A DNA stretch of 11,617 nucleotides, from the NCBI GenBank assembly GCA_016931785.1, contig JAFGED010000009.1:1-11617 (forward strand), given 5' to 3'. The notes under the pieces are model-generated. The model was given only the letters and a program-made list of their open reading frames with translations, had not been told where the DNA came from and made no database searches. This document shows positions 5,385 through 11,450 of the stretch, piece by piece. Each line of letters begins with the position of its first letter. The stretch's first letter is position 1. This DNA comes from Anaerolineae bacterium. Its GTDB lineage: Bacteria > Chloroflexota > Anaerolineae > B4-G1. Position numbers and translations under genes: made by a program.

Positions 5385-7406
5385 ATGAACAGCCCAACGA
5401 ATCCTTACATCGCCGGTAACCCCATCACGGGCTCGGAGATGTTCTTTGGCCGCCAGGACGTGTTCTGCTTCGTGCGGGAGACGCTGGTGGGGCGCTACCA
5501 GGATAACGCCATCGTTCTCTACGGCGGACGGCGAACGGGCAAAACCTCGGTTCTCTACCAGATGGGCCGCCACCTCGATCCCAAGTACGTGCCTGTCTTC
5601 GTGGATCTGCAGGCAGTCTCCTTGGGCGGGTTGGGGGAGATGCTGTGGGGGATCGCGCGCCAGGCCGTGCGGGTGTTGCGCCAGCAGAAGGGGATCAAGT
5701 TGAGCATCCCCTCGCGTGAGGAATTCGCCAGGGACCCGGAGGGTTGCTTCTACGAGCGCTTTCTCGATCCCGCCCTGGAAGCCCTTGGCGACGGGCATCT
5801 CCTGTTGATGCTGGACGAGGCCGCGCGGCTCTACGAGCAGGTACACGCCGGGCGGCTGGAGCCCCGCGCCTTTGACTTTCTTCGCAGTTTGATCCAGTAT
5901 CACTCTCGCCTGAACTTTATCTTTTCCATCGGCAGCGGCCTGGAGGAGATGCGGCGCGAGTATGCTCTCCTGTTCAATCTGTGCCAATATCGCAAGATCA
6001 GCTTCCTCGACCGGGACGCAGCCGTGGCGCTCATCACCAAGCCAGTCGAGGAGCATTATCGATACGCGCCCGGCGCGGTGGATCGAATTCTGGACGAGAC
6101 CTGCGGGCACCCCTACTACACTCAACTGGTGTGCAACCGTCTCTTTGCCCGCTGGGCCCGCCACGACGGCGACGAGGTGACCCCTGCCGACGTTGAGGCT
6201 GTTCTGGGCGAAGCGGTCGAGCAGGGCATGGCCAGCCTCCAGTACACCTGGGAGGAGGCCTCCGACGCCGCCAAGGTCGTTTTGGCGGCGCTGACCGAGC
6301 TTATGAAGGACAGTAACGGGTCCGTCAGCTTGAGCGATTTGGAAGACGTCCTTGCTGCCGAAGAGATCGCGCTCTCGCGCCGTGCGGTCGGCCGGGCGCT
6401 GCAAGAGCTGGTAGTGAGAGAGGTGTTGTATTCCACCCGTGAGGGCTATGCGTTCACCCTGGACCTTATGCGGCTGTGGGTCAAGCAGTATCAACATTTG
6501 GAGTGGGTCAAGGGCCAGGTCGCTCTCCCTGTGGAGGTGAGTGCACCTGCCAAGCGAGATTGGGTCCGCGTGACCCTCGCCGGTGTATCGGCCGGGTTGT
6601 TGTTTCTGATGGTCGGCCTTTCCATCATCGTCTGGCGCAGCATAGAGCGAGACAGGACCGAGAGGCAGGCTTCTGCGACGGCGATGTACGGCACCATCGA
6701 GGCTCTGAGGACCCGTGTCGCGCAGGTGCCCAGCGGGGCTCTTGAGCAGGCAGAGCTCAGCACAGAGATAGCGCTAAAAGAGACCGAGGTCGTGGGTGTG
6801 GCGACGGCGCTTCCCACGCAAGAACCTCCTATTACGCCAACTGCCGTCCCACTGCCTACTTATACCTCTACCCCCATTCCCACTCCCACGCCCAGCCCTA
6901 CGCCGGAGTGTTTGCCAGGGGATGGCCCATTCGTCGATATTTGGGAAGCCGATCAAGGCGCATTGGGATGTGCAAGGGACGTATCCCAGGCAGTCGAGGG
7001 AGCGAAGCAGGCGTTTGAAGGGGGGATGATGATCTGGCGGGGGGAAACCGATCAGATCATCGTCCTGTATAGCAATTCTGAATGGGCTTTGTACGACGGC
7101 ACCTGGAAGGAAGGTGATCCTTACATACATCCAGACTGCGAGTCGATGATACCGCCGACGACCAGCCTCTACCTACCTGTCCGCAGCTTTGGCAAACTCT
7201 GGTGTACCAATGAACCAGCACGCGAGAGGCTGGATTGGGCCACTGAGAAGGAGCGGGAGTGGGCCGGTATGGTACAGGAGTTTCAGGGCGGGCTGACCAT
7301 GATGCTCGCTTATGACGACACCGTGGAAGCATTCATATTCTATTGTGAGGACAAGACGTGTACCGGTGGAAAGTGGCGGCCACCGTCGATGCAGATACAG
7401 CGGTAG
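5385..7406 (+). CDS. Membrane-anchored STAND/AAA_35-like P-loop NTPase with an extracytoplasmic Pro/Thr linker and a Cys-containing LGFP-like C-terminal domain.
   Basis: Start moved to ATG 5385 (GGGAGGAG upstream). This aligns 'MNSPTNPYIAGNPITGSEMFFGR' with the paralog's N-terminus. Walker A 'GGRRTGKTS' near 5521-5550. Walker B 'LLLMLDEAA' near 5806-5820. wHTH-like segment. TM helix 'VTLAGVSAGLLFLMVGLSIIVW' near 6571-6633. PT linker 'PTQEPPITPTAVPLPTYTSTPIPTPTPSPTPE'. Six Cys after it, with LGFP-like 'LGCARDVSQAVEGAKQAFEGGMMIW' and 'LDWATEKEREWAGMVQEFQGGLTMM'. Confidence 0.85.
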   Translation: MNSPTNPYIAGNPITGSEMFFGRQDVFCFVRETLVGRYQDNAIVLYGGRRTGKTSVLYQMGRHLDPKYVPVFVDLQAVSLGGLGEMLWGIARQAVRVLRQQKGIKLSIPSREEFARDPEGCFYERFLDPALEALGDGHLLLMLDEAARLYEQVHAGRLEPRAFDFLRSLIQYHSRLNFIFSIGSGLEEMRREYALLFNLCQYRKISFLDRDAAVALITKPVEEHYRYAPGAVDRILDETCGHPYYTQLVCNRLFARWARHDGDEVTPADVEAVLGEAVEQGMASLQYTWEEASDAAKVVLAALTELMKDSNGSVSLSDLEDVLAAEEIALSRRAVGRALQELVVREVLYSTREGYAFTLDLMRLWVKQYQHLEWVKGQVALPVEVSAPAKRDWVRVTLAGVSAGLLFLMVGLSIIVWRSIERDRTERQASATAMYGTIEALRTRVAQVPSGALEQAELSTEIALKETEVVGVATALPTQEPPITPTAVPLPTYTSTPIPTPTPSPTPECLPGDGPFVDIWEADQGALGCARDVSQAVEGAKQAFEGGMMIWRGETDQIIVLYSNSEWALYDGTWKEGDPYIHPDCESMIPPTTSLYLPVRSFGKLWCTNEPARERLDWATEKEREWAGMVQEFQGGLTMMLAYDDTVEAFIFYCEDKTCTGGKWRPPSMQIQR

Positions 7407-7447
7407 TAGCTGGTTGCCTCGGATGATTTCGCTACAAGGGAGCACAT

Positions 7448-8749
7448 ATGCCGACTAATCCTTTTACCTATGGCAATCCCATCTCCGCCCCGGAGCGCTT
7501 TTTTGGGCGCAAGGCCGAGGTGGAACAGGTCTACACGCGCCTGCTCAACGCCGAGTTCGAAAGCAGTTCCATCGTCGGCGAGCGGCGGATGGGCAAGACG
7601 TCGTTGCTCAATTACATCGCGCACCCCTCCACCGCCGAGGCCCACGGTTTGACCCCAGGCCGCTATCTCTTTGTCTACGTCGATCTGCAGATGGTGGATC
7701 AAAAGACGACGCCGACGCGCTTCTGGTCTCGACTTTTGCGCCGCGCTGCCCGCGAGCTGAACGACGAAGGACTCAAGGCCGAATTCGAGCAGGCCGCCGG
7801 TCAAGAGGAAATCGATAACTATACCTTGGACGATCTTTTCTCCCTCGTTGACGAGCAAGACCTTCACTTTGTTTTGCTGTTGGACGAGTTCGAGAACGTC
7901 ACCGAGAACGCCAATTTTGACACCGACTTTTTCTACGGGCTGCGAGCCCTGGCGATCCATCACAATCTGGCCTTGATCACCGCCAGTCGGCAGGAGCTGA
8001 TCACGCTATGCCACTCCGACGCCGTGCGCGCCTCTCCTTTTTTCAACATCTTTGCCAACGTCAACCTGCCCGCCTTCGGTGAGGAAGAAGCCCGCGCGCT
8101 TGTCGAGCGGTCCCTGGCAGAGACCTGCGTGCAGTTTGCGCCAGCGGAACTGGCGCTGATATCGAATATCGCTGGCTCTCATCCCTATTTTCTCCAAATC
8201 GCCGCCCATTTTCTCTTCGCCGCCTACTGCAAAGGAGGCGCCGCACAGGAGAGAGAGCGGTATCTACTGCGGGAATTCGAGGAAGAGGCGACGCCCAGCC
8301 TGGCCGACTATTGGCATCACTCGGACGATGGCGAAAAGATCGTGCTCTCCGCACTGGCGTTGCTGGCGAGACAGGGGAAGGCAGGAAAGCGGCGTTTCTC
8401 GCTGGGCAAGTTGAAAGAGCTCTACCATCGTTCTGAGCTTACCCTCTCCTGGTTGGAGAAGCGCGCCTTGATCACCGCTGATGGGGAGGGATACACGCTG
8501 TTCTCCAGCGTGTTCGGCGATTGGATCGTCGCTGAGCTAACGGGCGTGATGGCCGACGCGCAGTCGTATGAGGAATGGCTGGCGGCCAATCAGAGTGCTT
8601 TACAACGTTTCTCCCGCTCGACCCGCGACGAAATCAGCGAGATACTGCCTCAGATCAAGGCCGGATATCGCCAGTTCGTCGTGGATTGGCTTTCCAATCC
8701 CCAGACGCTGGTCAGCGCGGCCTCGTTGCTCCGGAGTGTGTTTAGTTGA
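7448..8749 (+). CDS. Soluble paralogous STAND/AAA_35-like P-loop NTPase.
   Basis: N-terminus 'MPTNPFTYGNPISAPERFFGRKAEVE'. Walker A 'GERRMGKTS' near 7575-7603. Walker B 'VLLLDEFEN' near 7871-7900. C-terminal wHTH-like region. Lies 41 nt after the paralog. Confidence 0.85.
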   Translation: MPTNPFTYGNPISAPERFFGRKAEVEQVYTRLLNAEFESSSIVGERRMGKTSLLNYIAHPSTAEAHGLTPGRYLFVYVDLQMVDQKTTPTRFWSRLLRRAARELNDEGLKAEFEQAAGQEEIDNYTLDDLFSLVDEQDLHFVLLLDEFENVTENANFDTDFFYGLRALAIHHNLALITASRQELITLCHSDAVRASPFFNIFANVNLPAFGEEEARALVERSLAETCVQFAPAELALISNIAGSHPYFLQIAAHFLFAAYCKGGAAQERERYLLREFEEEATPSLADYWHHSDDGEKIVLSALALLARQGKAGKRRFSLGKLKELYHRSELTLSWLEKRALITADGEGYTLFSSVFGDWIVAELTGVMADAQSYEEWLAANQSALQRFSRSTRDEISEILPQIKAGYRQFVVDWLSNPQTLVSAASLLRSVFS

Positions 8750-9666
8750 CGGCCCAGGTAACGCGCCCTGTCTGTGATTATGAAGGTTCCGCTTACCGCA
8801 CCGAGTTCTGGGGACGCGGGCGGGAGTACGAGGACGGGGCCGAGCGGGCGGCGCTGCGCCACCTGCTGCCGCCTACCGGTCGCCGCCTGATCGACATCGG
8901 CGGGGGGTACGGGCGGATCTTTCCCCTCTACGGCGGCTACGACGAGGTGGTGCTGTTCGACTACGCGCGCTCGCAGCTGCAGCAGGGGCGGGAGTTGTGG
9001 GGGGATGCCGGCCCCGGCGGCAAGCCGCGCTACACGTACGTCGCAGGTGACTTTTATAAATTCCCCTTCGTCCCGGGCCTCTTTGATGCGGTGGTGATGG
9101 TGCGCACGCTCCATCACGCCGCCGACGCGCCGGCGGTGCTGCGCGGCGTGGCGCAGATGCTTGCCCCGGGGGGCGCGTTCGTGTTGGAATTCGCCAACAA
9201 GCGCAACCTCAAAGCCATCCTGCGCCGCCTGCTGCAGCGACAGGATTGGTCGCCCTTCGACCGGGAGCCGGTAGAGTTTGCCAAGCTGAACTTTGACTTC
9301 CACCCGGCTTGGATGCGTGAGCGCCTGAACGAGGCCGGGCTGCGCGTGCGGGAAACGCGCGCCGTCTCCCACTTTCGGATCGGCCTGCTCAAGCGCGTGG
9401 CGCCCACGGGGCTTTTGGTGGCGCTCGACCGGCTGGTACAACCGACGGGGGCGCTGTGCCAGCTTTCGCCCAGCGTTTTCGTGCGCTGCCAGGGTGGCGG
9501 CAAAACCGCCGCGCCCGCGGGCGCTTTTTTCCGTTGCACTATTTGTGGTTCGACGATGCTTGTAGAGAAAGGGGAGATCCTATCCTGCGCCAACTGCGGC
9601 GCGCGTTTCGCGATGCGTGATGGGGTCTATGATTTCAAGGCCCCGCTGGAGGGAGGTAGAGGATGA
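8746..9666 (+). CDS. Class I SAM-dependent methyltransferase with a C-terminal Trm112-like C4 zinc ribbon.
   Basis: TTG start overlaps the upstream TGA (TTGA, 8746-8749), with GGAG 9 nt upstream. Motif I 'LIDIGGGYGRI' near 8884-8913. 'VAGDFYKFPF...FDAVVMVRTLHH' and 'LAPGGAFVLEF' follow. C-terminus 'FRCTICGSTMLVEKGEILSCANCGARFAMRDGVYDF' near 9527-9640. No DPPY or PC DNA-MTase motifs. Confidence 0.8.
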   Translation: MTAQVTRPVCDYEGSAYRTEFWGRGREYEDGAERAALRHLLPPTGRRLIDIGGGYGRIFPLYGGYDEVVLFDYARSQLQQGRELWGDAGPGGKPRYTYVAGDFYKFPFVPGLFDAVVMVRTLHHAADAPAVLRGVAQMLAPGGAFVLEFANKRNLKAILRRLLQRQDWSPFDREPVEFAKLNFDFHPAWMRERLNEAGLRVRETRAVSHFRIGLLKRVAPTGLLVALDRLVQPTGALCQLSPSVFVRCQGGGKTAAPAGAFFRCTICGSTMLVEKGEILSCANCGARFAMRDGVYDFKAPLEGGRG

Positions 9667-10094
9667 GCGGCGCGCGGAAGGCGCTGTTTGGCGATCTGGT
9701 CTTTAACGAAGCAGGTGAGCCGGTCAGGGTGGTCGATATCGGCAACGCGCCTCACTATGCCGTGCCGGACGGGGATTTTCTGCGCCACGTCGAGGCGGCG
9801 TACGTGGACCGCCAGATTCTGGACCAGATCAAGGAGCGCATCCTGCCGATGAAGGACGCGATCATCGAGGGGATGATCCAGATGATCGGCCAGGAGAATC
9901 TGTTCACGCGCCCTGCCATCGAGAGTGCCATCGAGAACATGGATCGCATCCTCGAGACGGATGACGTCGACGTGGACGAATTGCGCACCGCGTTGTGGAT
10001 GACGGGCTTTCGCGCCACGGTGGACGTGCACGGCGAGGTGGTGGAGCTGGAGATGCCGGGGGTGGAAGCGCCGGATTGGGATGGTGACGAGTGA
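9663..10094 (+). CDS. Hypothetical small acidic protein (143 aa).
   Basis: ATG overlaps the MTase stop (ATGA, 9663-9666) and is preceded by GGAGGGAGG. High GC3. Asp/Glu-rich tail 'DWDGDE'. No family recognised. Confidence 0.7.
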   Translation: MSGARKALFGDLVFNEAGEPVRVVDIGNAPHYAVPDGDFLRHVEAAYVDRQILDQIKERILPMKDAIIEGMIQMIGQENLFTRPAIESAIENMDRILETDDVDVDELRTALWMTGFRATVDVHGEVVELEMPGVEAPDWDGDE

Positions 10095-10121
10095 AATTTT
10101 GGAAGAGCGCCAAAATTTCAC
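10091..10121 (+). other. AT-rich perfect hairpin overlapping the stop codon of the acidic-protein gene.
   Basis: GTGAAATTTTGG-aagagcg-CCAAAATTTCAC with 12-bp perfect arms. The stop TGA at 10092-10094 lies inside the left arm. Confidence 0.55.
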
Positions 10122-10127
10122 TTGAGC

Positions 10128-10160
10128 AAAAGCCGCCCAGACGAAGGCGGCTTTTGTTTG
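10128..10160 (+). terminator. Rho-independent terminator ending the plus-strand gene cluster.
   Basis: AAAAGCCGCC-cagacgaa-GGCGGCTTTT followed by GTTTG. GC stem flanked by A and T tracts. Confidence 0.7.
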
Positions 10161-10202
10161 TAAGTATTTGTAAGCATTACGGGCGAGCGTAAGGGCTTGT
10201 AC

Positions 10203-10231
10203 TTGTGCGGCTTACCAAGTTGGTGTATACT
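10203..10231 (+). promoter_or_regulatory. Candidate dnaN promoter.
   Basis: TTGTGC at 10203-10208, a 17-nt spacer, then TATACT at 10226-10231 with TG immediately upstream. SD GAGGAGG at 10254-10260 lies 9 nt before the ATG. Confidence 0.3.
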
Positions 10232-10269
10232 GTTGCAATATCGCCTAATTCACGAGGAGGACCGCAGCG

Positions 10270-11403
10270 ATGAAGATCTCCTGCCTGCAAGAAAACCTCG
10301 CCAAGGGTTTGGGAATCGTTGGACGCGCAGTTTCGCCGCGCTCCACGCTGCCCGTGCTCGGCAACATTCTCCTGGCTGCCGACAATGGAAGGCTCAAGCT
10401 CTCTGCCACCAATCTGGAGGTGGGCATCAACTGTTGGATCGGGGCCAAGGTGGAGGAGGAGGGGGCGACCACCGTCCCGGCCCGCACGTTCATCGACCTG
10501 GTCAACTCCCTGCCCCCGGAGCGGGTGGATATGGAACTGGTCACGCGCACGCAGACGCTCAATCTGCACGCCGGTCGCAGCGAGGCGAACATCAAGGGCA
10601 TCGACGCGCAGGAATTCCCGCTCGTGCCGGTGCCGGAGGGCGAGGGGGGGATCTCCATCGAAGCCGAGGCCCTGCGCACGGCGATTGGGCAGGTCGCTTT
10701 CGCCGCTGCCACCGACGAGAGCCGTCCCATCCTGACCGGGGTGTTGGCCAAGTTTGAGGACGCGCAACTCACGCTGGCCGCCGCCGACGGGTTCCGTCTC
10801 TCGGTGCGCACCGTCGAATTGTCCCAGGTTGTTCCCGATCCCTTCAGCGTCATCATTCCCTCCCGGGCGCTGACCGAGTTAGGGCGCATCAGCGGCGAGC
10901 AGGAAGCCCCGGTTTCAATCACCGTCACTCCCACCCGCAACCAGGTCATCTTTCAACTGACCGACATCGTCCTGGTGTCGCAACTGATCGACGGCAATTT
11001 TCCCGACTACCGGCAGATCATTCCCAAGGACCGCACGGCGCACACGGTGGTGGATACGGCCGTGTTCCTCAAGGCGTGCAAGACGGCGCTCATTTTCGCC
11101 CGCGATGCGGCCCACATCGCCCGGTTGCACATCAAGCCCGGCTCCGAGCTGGCTCCGGGCAGCATGATCGTCTCCGCTACCTCCGCCGAAACCGGCGACG
11201 ACGTGAGCGAGTTGGATGCCAGCATCGAAGGTGACGAGATTGAGGTCGCCTTCAACGTCCGATACTTGATCGACGTGCTATCGGTGATCGGCACGCCGCA
11301 GGTGGGCTTGGATACGACCACCTCCTCCAGCCCGGGCGTTCTCCGGCCCGTAGGCGAGGAGGATTTTACCCACGTGATCATGCCGATGCATTTGGGGCGG
11401 TAG
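10270..11403 (+). CDS. dnaN: DNA polymerase III beta subunit (sliding clamp).
   Basis: 377 aa. 'MKISCLQENLAKGLGIVGRAVSPRSTLPVLGNILLAADNGRLKLSATNLEVGI' is the canonical DnaN N-terminus. Three-domain length and a strong SD. Confidence 0.95.
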   Translation: MKISCLQENLAKGLGIVGRAVSPRSTLPVLGNILLAADNGRLKLSATNLEVGINCWIGAKVEEEGATTVPARTFIDLVNSLPPERVDMELVTRTQTLNLHAGRSEANIKGIDAQEFPLVPVPEGEGGISIEAEALRTAIGQVAFAAATDESRPILTGVLAKFEDAQLTLAAADGFRLSVRTVELSQVVPDPFSVIIPSRALTELGRISGEQEAPVSITVTPTRNQVIFQLTDIVLVSQLIDGNFPDYRQIIPKDRTAHTVVDTAVFLKACKTALIFARDAAHIARLHIKPGSELAPGSMIVSATSAETGDDVSELDASIEGDEIEVAFNVRYLIDVLSVIGTPQVGLDTTTSSSPGVLRPVGEEDFTHVIMPMHLGR

Positions 11404-11422
11404 CGCAGCCTCTCGAAACACC

Positions 11423-11450
11423 GGACGCCCTCAGGAGACTGAGGGCGTCC
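11423..11450 (+). terminator. Perfect 12-bp hairpin with a GAGA tetraloop downstream of dnaN. Candidate terminator with a weak U-tract.
   Basis: GGACGCCCTCAG-GAGA-CTGAGGGCGTCC followed by GATATTG. Confidence 0.4.

Follow-up and report, generated by a model that had tools for sequence, protein, structure and literature searches.

A gene in the 11,617-nucleotide (nt) stretch of Anaerolineae DNA presented here (contig JAFGED010000009.1; the whole stretch is referred to as the window) is predicted to encode a membrane-anchored NOD-type ATPase of 673 amino acids (aa) with an LGFP-like ectodomain. The protein is called the TM-ATPase below, after its transmembrane (TM) helix. Its gene adjoins one for a soluble nSTAND2 paralog, and among close relatives the ectodomain appears to have been replaced as a cassette. 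By analogy with known systems, the TM-ATPase may be a modular outside-in sensor with a swappable outer domain, paired with the soluble paralog, a reading to which a little better than an even chance is given. A preliminary description of this DNA, confined to the 3' third of the gene (6571-7406), had suggested transmembrane signal sensing by a STAND-like ATPase with an outside-facing domain. The overall architecture is supported, while the sensing itself stays an inference. The paired soluble paralog and the ectodomain exchange, both outside that description, are the most informative features.

The gene occupies most of an open reading frame (ORF) at 5361-7406 on the plus strand. ATG 5385, the start in the NCBI record, has GGAGG 6 nt upstream and is likely the true start; residue numbers throughout refer to the 673-aa product from this codon. 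This product is 100% identical to the NCBI 'hypothetical protein JW918_00445' of an Anaerolineae bacterium metagenome-assembled genome (record P0001). An antisense ORF of 389 aa (5328-6497, minus strand) is placed wholly within the ATPase gene. Long shadow ORFs are also found opposite other genes of the contig (~60% GC), and were treated as compositional artefacts.

NOD module and membrane topology

The NOD module consists of a P-loop nucleotide-binding domain, a helical domain and a winged helix, and opens with a conserved PTNPYIAGNPI...FFGR. Walker A residues G47, R50, G52, K53 and T54 and Walker B residues D144 and E145 are invariant among 97 homologs. Judged by these Walker motifs, the module is predicted to be a catalytically intact NOD-type P-loop ATPase. 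Its best two structural neighbours in a fold comparison are PF01637-type proteins, PABY2304 (PDB 2QEN) and SSO1545 (PDB 2FNA), which are 15-16% identical to it. Unlike the window protein, both are soluble archaeal proteins without a TM helix or ectodomain. Sequence searches of the PDB with the module, as a single sequence or as a 97-sequence profile, gave no matches, and Pfam P-loop matches are weak (AAA_22, 28 bits). Precomputed PF20703 matches are present in some homologs at 73-78% identity. By fold comparison, the NOD module shares its fold with the PF01637 archaeal ATPases and with STAND/NB-ARC proteins. The fold evidence taken alone is also compatible with an ORC-like AAA+ affinity; the label 'STAND-like' is justified by the fold together with paralogy to the neighbouring nSTAND2 protein (see below), and in this sense the ATPase with a winged helix-turn-helix of the preliminary description stands.

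The classical STAND tripartite layout (N-terminal effector, NOD, cytoplasmic C-terminal sensor) is not seen in the TM-ATPase. The NOD begins at residue 4, with no effector before it, and the TM helix lies between the NOD and the variable C-terminal domain. This helix, VTLAGVSAGLLFLMVGLSIIVW, has a Kyte-Doolittle 19-residue peak of 2.43 and is the sole segment of the protein above 1.4, as had been described. Exactly one hydrophobic segment, in the same position directly after the NOD, is found in 114 of the 120 best homologs. In the AlphaFold2 model the TM helix belongs to one unbroken helix that spans aa 391-447, and another helix covers aa 453-474; both have a predicted local distance difference test (pLDDT) score of 83-91. 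The low-complexity Pro/Thr linker that follows, PTQEPPITPTAVPLPTYTSTPIPTPTPSPTPE, had also been recognised in the preliminary description, and is disordered in the model (aa 478-507, pLDDT ~30).

As the NOD is an ATP-dependent N-terminal domain without a signal peptide, it should be cytoplasmic, and with a single TM span the C-terminus is therefore placed outside. The charges around the TM helix in 114 homologs agree with this: the 15-residue flanks hold on average 3.6 Lys+Arg on the N-terminal side and 2.0 on the C-terminal side. The N-terminal flank has more of them in 79 homologs, the same number in 25 and fewer in 10. Taken alone, the window protein has no such bias (three on the N-terminal side, four on the C-terminal side). 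The placement of the ectodomain family in 149 other proteins also agrees. The number of hydrophobic segments ahead of it is odd in 103 and even in three, and none ever comes after it; the remaining 43 have no preceding hydrophobic segment, many of them being fragments. Together with the cysteine pairs discussed below, all the topology evidence points to a bitopic protein, N-in and C-out, so that the outside-facing C-terminus proposed earlier is upheld.

The LGFP-like ectodomain and its relatives

Exactly six cysteines follow the linker, as the preliminary description had counted (aa 509, 529, 585, 607, 654 and 659). The two segments that it had likened to LGFP repeats, LGCARDVSQAVEGAKQAFEGGMMIW (nt 6963-7037) and LDWATEKEREWAGMVQEFQGGLTMM (nt 7230-7304), fall one in each half of the ectodomain, and the profiles of the two halves match each other with strong support (hhalign probability 99.6%, E 3.2e-24). 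The ectodomain is therefore an internal duplication. An AlphaFold2 model built from a 33-sequence alignment (A3) has high confidence (pLDDT 95.4, predicted template-modelling score 0.89). Its secondary structure elements, in domain numbering, are H8-21, E29-38, E41-46, E51-56 and E60-65 in unit 1, and H94-110, E118-127, E130-137, E140-148 and E155-159 in unit 2. The LGFP unit fold, a helix plus a 3-4-stranded antiparallel sheet in tandem, is thus present in the ectodomain.

LGFP (PF08310) is the sole Pfam match of the C-terminal region, as the earlier proposal would predict, but its score falls short of the family threshold (18.2 bits, E 0.0033, against a gathering score of 22 bits) and it covers only model positions 13-34, 22 residues, in unit 1. 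LGFP is matched by 34 of 86 full-length homologs (best E 1e-22) and by 14 of 33 isolated ectodomain segments (best E 8e-7), and no other Pfam family is found on the domain in either set. The A3 profile, searched against 177,635 PDB sequences, retrieved PS1/MytA only (6SWZ, E 5e-6; 6SX4, E 1.6e-4). The LGFP tetrapeptide is not kept: it reads LGCA in unit 1 and LDWA in unit 2 (LGWA in orthologs), and only its L and G are conserved across the ectodomain family. As independent lines of evidence converge on LGFP/MytA and on nothing else, the ectodomain holds up, at the level of sequence, as a remote, divergent LGFP relative rather than a textbook LGFP repeat.

LGFP units are of ~54 aa, with a helix and a 3-4-stranded sheet, and the LGFP repeats of MytA bind the peptidoglycan-arabinogalactan wall (PMC11299179). 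The likeness of the window ectodomain to MytA/PS1 of Corynebacterium glutamicum (6SWZ, 6SX4) lies in a unit of ~55-60 aa with an N-terminal helix and a four-stranded antiparallel sheet, in the pattern LG-x-[AP]...E...Q-x-F-[EQ]-x-G-x-[ILM]-x-W shared with LGFP, in tandem duplication and in extracytoplasmic location. However, MytA has five units that form a stalk, while the window ectodomain has two units with a ~25-aa Pro-rich insert in one compact domain. It also has predicted disulfides, which MytA lacks; the F-P of the canonical motif is replaced; the host belongs to Chloroflexota rather than Actinomycetota; and the domain sits on a TM ATPase instead of a secreted enzyme.

It is highly improbable that the LGFP resemblance is due to chance in an unrelated Cys-rich domain, or that the hydrophobic segment does not span the membrane and the protein is cytoplasmic. 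Such an explanation could draw on the low score and short extent of the LGFP match, on the altered tetrapeptide, and on a Foldseek search of the PDB, in which the ectodomain had no match at E<=0.001 and the two-unit domain thus had no global structural match. It is disfavoured by the four independent lines that lead to LGFP/MytA alone, the internal duplication, the retention of the TM segment in the homologs, the covariation of the cysteine pairs and, in other architectures, the occurrence of the ectodomain family after TM or signal segments. Other candidate assignments were rejected: laminin G and galectin folds were the best Foldseek matches, with TM-scores of ~0.2, and were regarded as noise, and NCBIfam matches to GltJ and SslE, far below cut-off, cover the TM, stalk and linker region (aa 384-523) and are low-complexity artefacts.

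In orthologs P0002-P0005 the ectodomain is 60-72% identical, in line with the conservation that would be expected of a genuine domain, and all six cysteines are invariant. In a set of 141 aligned domains, counted without regard to phylogeny, Cys509 and Cys529 are both present in 65, one alone is present in 0 and 2, and neither is present in 23; Cys585 and Cys607 are both present in 57, both missing from 84 and never found singly. Cys654 and Cys659 (CEDKTC, in the last hairpin) are confined to the window's clade. The cysteines thus behave as disulfide pairs, and a disulfide-stapled domain is predicted. At aa 626 (nt 7260-7262), the window has Trp (EREWAG) where four of four orthologs have Cys (ER[AGE]CSG). 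In the orthologs this would be a seventh cysteine without a partner, its free thiol unusual where the other six are predicted to pair.

Of 1.84 billion cluster representatives scanned exhaustively with HMMER, 2,438 match the ectodomain at E<=1e-3, and the match reaches E<=1e-10 for 661; there are often 2-5 copies of the domain in one protein. A word-index search with the 168-aa ectodomain returned zero matches and missed even the identical database protein; a negative from such a search is not to be relied on when the domain is short and divergent. The named hosts are Chloroflexi, Anaerolineae and Roseiflexaceae, and the proteins are almost all annotated as 'hypothetical protein'. Among 86 homologs, the Pfam partners of the ectodomain are LysM (18), zf-HC2 anti-sigma (13), Pkinase (10) and Big_5 (10), and further PA14, SH3_3 and BNR/Sortilin. 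The nearest non-orthologous ectodomains (40-47% identity, same four-Cys pattern) are carried by bitopic Hanks-type Ser/Thr kinases (P0130, P0142 and P0153). From these architectures, Ser/Thr kinases and anti-sigma factors of Chloroflexota are predicted to use this family as their outer domain. A two-unit LGFP-like ectodomain this widespread (at least 2,438 clusters) would extend LGFP-type wall-binding modules beyond Actinomycetota. The ATPase is absent from the 149 best ectodomain-bearing representatives outside the window's own cluster, and the LGFP-like ectodomain is absent from the other 115 top ATPase homologs. The fusion of the two is therefore confined to a small clade.

These relatives bear on whether the domain is an anchor only, which tethers or positions the two ATPases at the wall, such as at the septa of these filamentous bacteria, without passing information across the membrane. 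The sole characterised LGFP domain, that of PS1/MytA, is a wall-binding and anchoring module (PMC11299179), LysM and SH3_3, found alongside the ectodomain, are wall-binding modules, and a 32-aa disordered linker is poorly suited to transmit a conformational change. However, the TM helix already anchors the protein in the membrane, the closest relatives of the ectodomain are on signalling proteins (receptor kinases and anti-sigma factors), and its replacement by FGE-sulfatase or NBR1-Ig domains at the same locus (see below) fits changing ligand specificity better than fixed anchoring. Anchoring alone is accordingly judged unlikely.

Ectodomain exchange and the paired ATPase

A full-length search returned relatives with 70-86% identity along the initial 60-77% of the query, after which they diverge. 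Their ectodomains are FGE-sulfatase, NBR1-type Ig, YbbR and small beta domains, and at ~50% identity Reg_prop, WD40, Laminin_G_3, DUF1080, PsbP, TIG and TPR are found. The TM-ATPase is the second gene of a five-gene block (215-aa hypothetical, TM-ATPase, nSTAND2 paralog, methyltransferase with zinc ribbon, ~142-aa protein), and this block carries LGFP-like (loci L001 and L003), FGE-sulfatase (L006-L008) or NBR1-Ig (L009 and L010) ectodomains. In a blastn comparison of the window with L008 (FGE-sulfatase), DNA similarity extends over 4555-6901 (77%) and 7446-11448 (85%), with none over 6902-7445. The break coincides with the end of the Pro/Thr linker on one side and with the start of the next gene on the other. 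The first part of the stalk is kept in DNA even among relatives with other ectodomains, and homology with the window reaches nt 6707-6726 in L006 and L009 and 6901 in L008. The ectodomain segment (6906-7403) has a GC content of 0.56 and a third-position GC content (GC3) of 0.645, whereas GC3 is 0.73-0.84 in every neighbouring gene, which is consistent with acquisition as a cassette. From these alignments, the ectodomain swap is best described as a cassette replacement in a positionally orthologous gene, with the Pro/Thr linker as the recombination boundary. Two copies of the block, L007 and L009, come from the same JGI sample (3300017989) and have FGE-sulfatase and NBR1-Ig ectodomains, respectively, and different flanks.

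The gene downstream encodes a soluble 433-aa protein with Pfam matches to nSTAND2 (PF20702, 1.8e-19), AAA_35 (3.1e-12) and nSTAND1 (1.5e-10). It is 27% identical to the NOD module over 383 aa (BLASTP E 3e-22), and the two have an N-terminal NP[YF]..GNPI...FFGR motif in common. On sequence grounds, the soluble partner is thus a paralog of the NOD module. Both ATPases bear G-x4-GK[TS] and hhhhDE motifs, and Walker A and B of the partner are intact in seven of seven orthologs. The TM-ATPase adjoins the partner gene in the window, in L001-L011 and at the P0064 locus, and in all eight distinct contexts examined. In the P0064 locus and L011:4646-8142 (~44-52% identity), the gene order is reversed, the stop of the partner abutting the start of the TM-ATPase, and of the block only these two genes are found, without the methyltransferase and small genes. 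As these distant loci keep only the pair, it is the conserved core.

The rest of the block is more narrowly distributed. The 215-aa hypothetical has no Pfam or PADLOC match; a 210-215-aa protein is in the same upstream position in L001-L003 and L006-L010, and none is upstream of the TM-ATPase in L004/L005. The methyltransferase and small gene follow the partner in L001, L003 and L006-L010, and the contigs of L002 and L004/L005, which have the LGFP-like ectodomain, stop after the partner gene. Overlaps of 4 nt (8746-8749 and 9663-9666) suggest that the partner, methyltransferase/zinc-ribbon and 143-aa genes are translationally coupled, and spacing is equally tight in L001, L006 and L009. The block persists despite altered flanks: L009 has mutL in place of dnaN.

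The pair resembles a two-gene nSTAND2 operon described by Kaur, Iyer, Burroughs and Aravind in eLife in 2021, in which one partner is eroded and carries a variable GT4/HEPN effector (PMC8195603). Both consist of adjacent paralogous nSTAND2-type NTPases, one with a variable C-terminal module. However, Walker A and B are intact in both partners of the window pair; its variable module is an ectodomain behind a TM helix (LGFP-like, FGE-sulfatase, NBR1-Ig or Reg_prop) rather than a cytoplasmic effector; and its locus appears chromosomally syntenic, not mobile. If the window pair were a membrane version of this operon, the surface domain would detect a phage or competitor and the ATPases would trigger defence. 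The adjacent paralogs with one variable fusion follow the published pattern, exchange of ectodomains among close relatives is expected under diversifying pressure, FGE-sulfatase/C-type-lectin domains have been proposed as antigen sensors of STAND proteins (10.1101/2023.09.22.558884), and a restriction-modification (R-M) system lies 3 kb upstream. Against this counter-invader role are the intact Walker motifs of both ATPases, the lack of a GT4, HEPN, TIR or protease effector domain, and a syntenic position next to dnaN or mutL that is not visibly mobile. PADLOC gave nothing for the TM-ATPase and only a marginal mad8 match for the partner (E 0.002), its mad2 match on the methyltransferase is a generic methyltransferase-domain match, and the R-M neighbour is not conserved at related loci. 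A role in defence has, on this evidence, a low probability.

Table 1. Coordinates of the TM-ATPase gene, its predicted parts and the other genes of the five-gene block in the window.
Feature	Residues	Position	Strand	Basis or remark
TM-ATPase, whole gene	1-673	5385..7406	+	membrane-anchored NOD-type ATPase with LGFP-like ectodomain (predicted)
NOD module	1-385	5385..6539	+	P-loop nucleotide-binding domain, helical domain, winged helix
Walker A, GGRRTGKTS	47-55	5523..5549	+	sequence motif
Walker B, LLLMLDEA	139-146	5799..5822	+	sequence motif
Single TM helix (22-mer)	396-417	6570..6635	+	Kyte-Doolittle
Extracytoplasmic helical stalk (predicted)	418-474	6636..6806	+	continuation of TM helix plus second helix
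Pro/Thr-rich linker	477-508	6813..6908	+	disordered in AlphaFold2 model
Ectodomain	508-673	6906..7403	+	two LGFP-type units, six Cys
LGFP-like unit 1	512-574	6918..7106	+	one helix and four strands; LGCA...QAFEGGMMIW
LGFP-like unit 2	596-666	7170..7382	+	helices and four strands; LDWA...VQEFQGGLTMM
Exchangeable segment (ectodomain coding and intergenic spacer)		6902..7445	+	no homology to L008
Partner gene, soluble nSTAND2/AAA_35 ATPase	1-433	7448..8749	+	Pfam, BLASTP paralogy
215-aa hypothetical		4637..5284	+	upstream; first gene of the clade-specific block
S-adenosylmethionine methyltransferase with C-terminal zinc ribbon		8746..9666	+	Methyltransf_11 (7.4e-13) and zinc-ribbon matches
143-aa hypothetical		9663..10094	+	ORF coordinates

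Sensing model and neighbouring genes

STAND/NLR-type ATPases are understood as cytoplasmic sensors, in which the sensor domain contacts and autoinhibits the NOD. In the TM-ATPase family, the variable 'sensor' would instead lie across the membrane on a flexible tether, and the adjacent gene always encodes a further NOD paralog, a soluble one. Any signalling by the family would need a different logic, such as clustering or hetero-oligomerisation. In the preferred reading of the TM-ATPase as an outside-in sensor, the ectodomain would bind a multivalent extracytoplasmic ligand, probably a glycan or derived from the cell wall, and binding would cluster or re-position the receptors. Clustering is proposed rather than a conformational relay because a disordered tether cannot pass on a conformational change. 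Clustered receptors would then bring their NOD modules into ATP-dependent oligomers with the soluble nSTAND2 paralog, and in the window's clade the block's methyltransferase/zinc-ribbon protein and its small proteins may take part in the output.

The layout of a cytoplasmic module, one TM helix, a linker and a wall- or ligand-binding ectodomain is shared with PknB-type PASTA kinases and zf-HC2 anti-sigma factors, and the window's ectodomain family itself occurs on kinases (P0130, P0142 and P0153) and anti-sigma factors of this kind. However, in place of a kinase or a sigma-factor-binding module the TM-ATPase has an NTPase switch in the cytoplasm, presumably an oligomerising one, and no phosphorylation or sigma output is evident.

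Several points weigh against the sensor reading. The TM-ATPase itself has no nSTAND1 or nSTAND2 Pfam match at E<=1, and its match to ATPase_2 (PF01637; 20.7 bits, E 4.1e-4) is under the gathering score of 33.2. No recognisable effector domain is found on the TM-ATPase or on its soluble partner, and PADLOC assigns no defence system to the locus. The LGFP match below its gathering score, the unbiased charges around the window protein's own TM helix and cysteine counts that ignore phylogeny belong with these. The mechanism is put forward by analogy, with ligand, oligomer and output all inferred.

A broader proposal can be made tentatively, and is rather unlikely: that the TM-ATPases form a large Chloroflexota family of NLR-like receptors, in which outside-displayed sensor cassettes would be recombined at the Pro/Thr linker of a locus fixed in the chromosome, and signals would pass through hetero-oligomers with the dedicated soluble nSTAND2 paralog. 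If true, bacteria would have an equivalent of surface pattern-recognition receptors in which a NOD switch takes the place of a kinase or TIR domain. The natural ectodomain-swap variants, on a chassis that is 70-86% identical, are a ready-made system for testing the signalling logic.

Taken singly, the elements are already known, whether LGFP repeats, paired nSTAND2 proteins or a bitopic layout for receptors, and periplasmic lectin-type domains on STAND proteins have received a brief mention (10.1101/2023.09.22.558884). A literature search of incomplete coverage found no description of a TM-anchored nSTAND/NOD family with cassette ectodomains and an obligate soluble paralog, nor of a two-unit disulfide-bonded LGFP-like ectodomain.

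Upstream of the block, between it and a LysE gene, is a gene (2931-4433, minus strand) whose 500-aa product is of the SPFH/Band 7 type and has the 'shoulder' domain of the major vault protein (Pfam 7.2e-8 and 3e-5). The stretch 2797-4554 has no DNA counterpart in L008, and therefore reflects an insertion or deletion between close relatives. Further upstream (68-2075, minus strand) are overlapping genes for an NgoMIV-type restriction endonuclease (Pfam 2.7e-48) and an N6/N4 DNA methylase (4.9e-21). The GC content of this R-M stretch is 0.44-0.51, compared with ~0.6 elsewhere, and by this measure it looks like an acquired island. In the same position, L008 instead has an NgoMIV-type enzyme and an EVE-domain protein.

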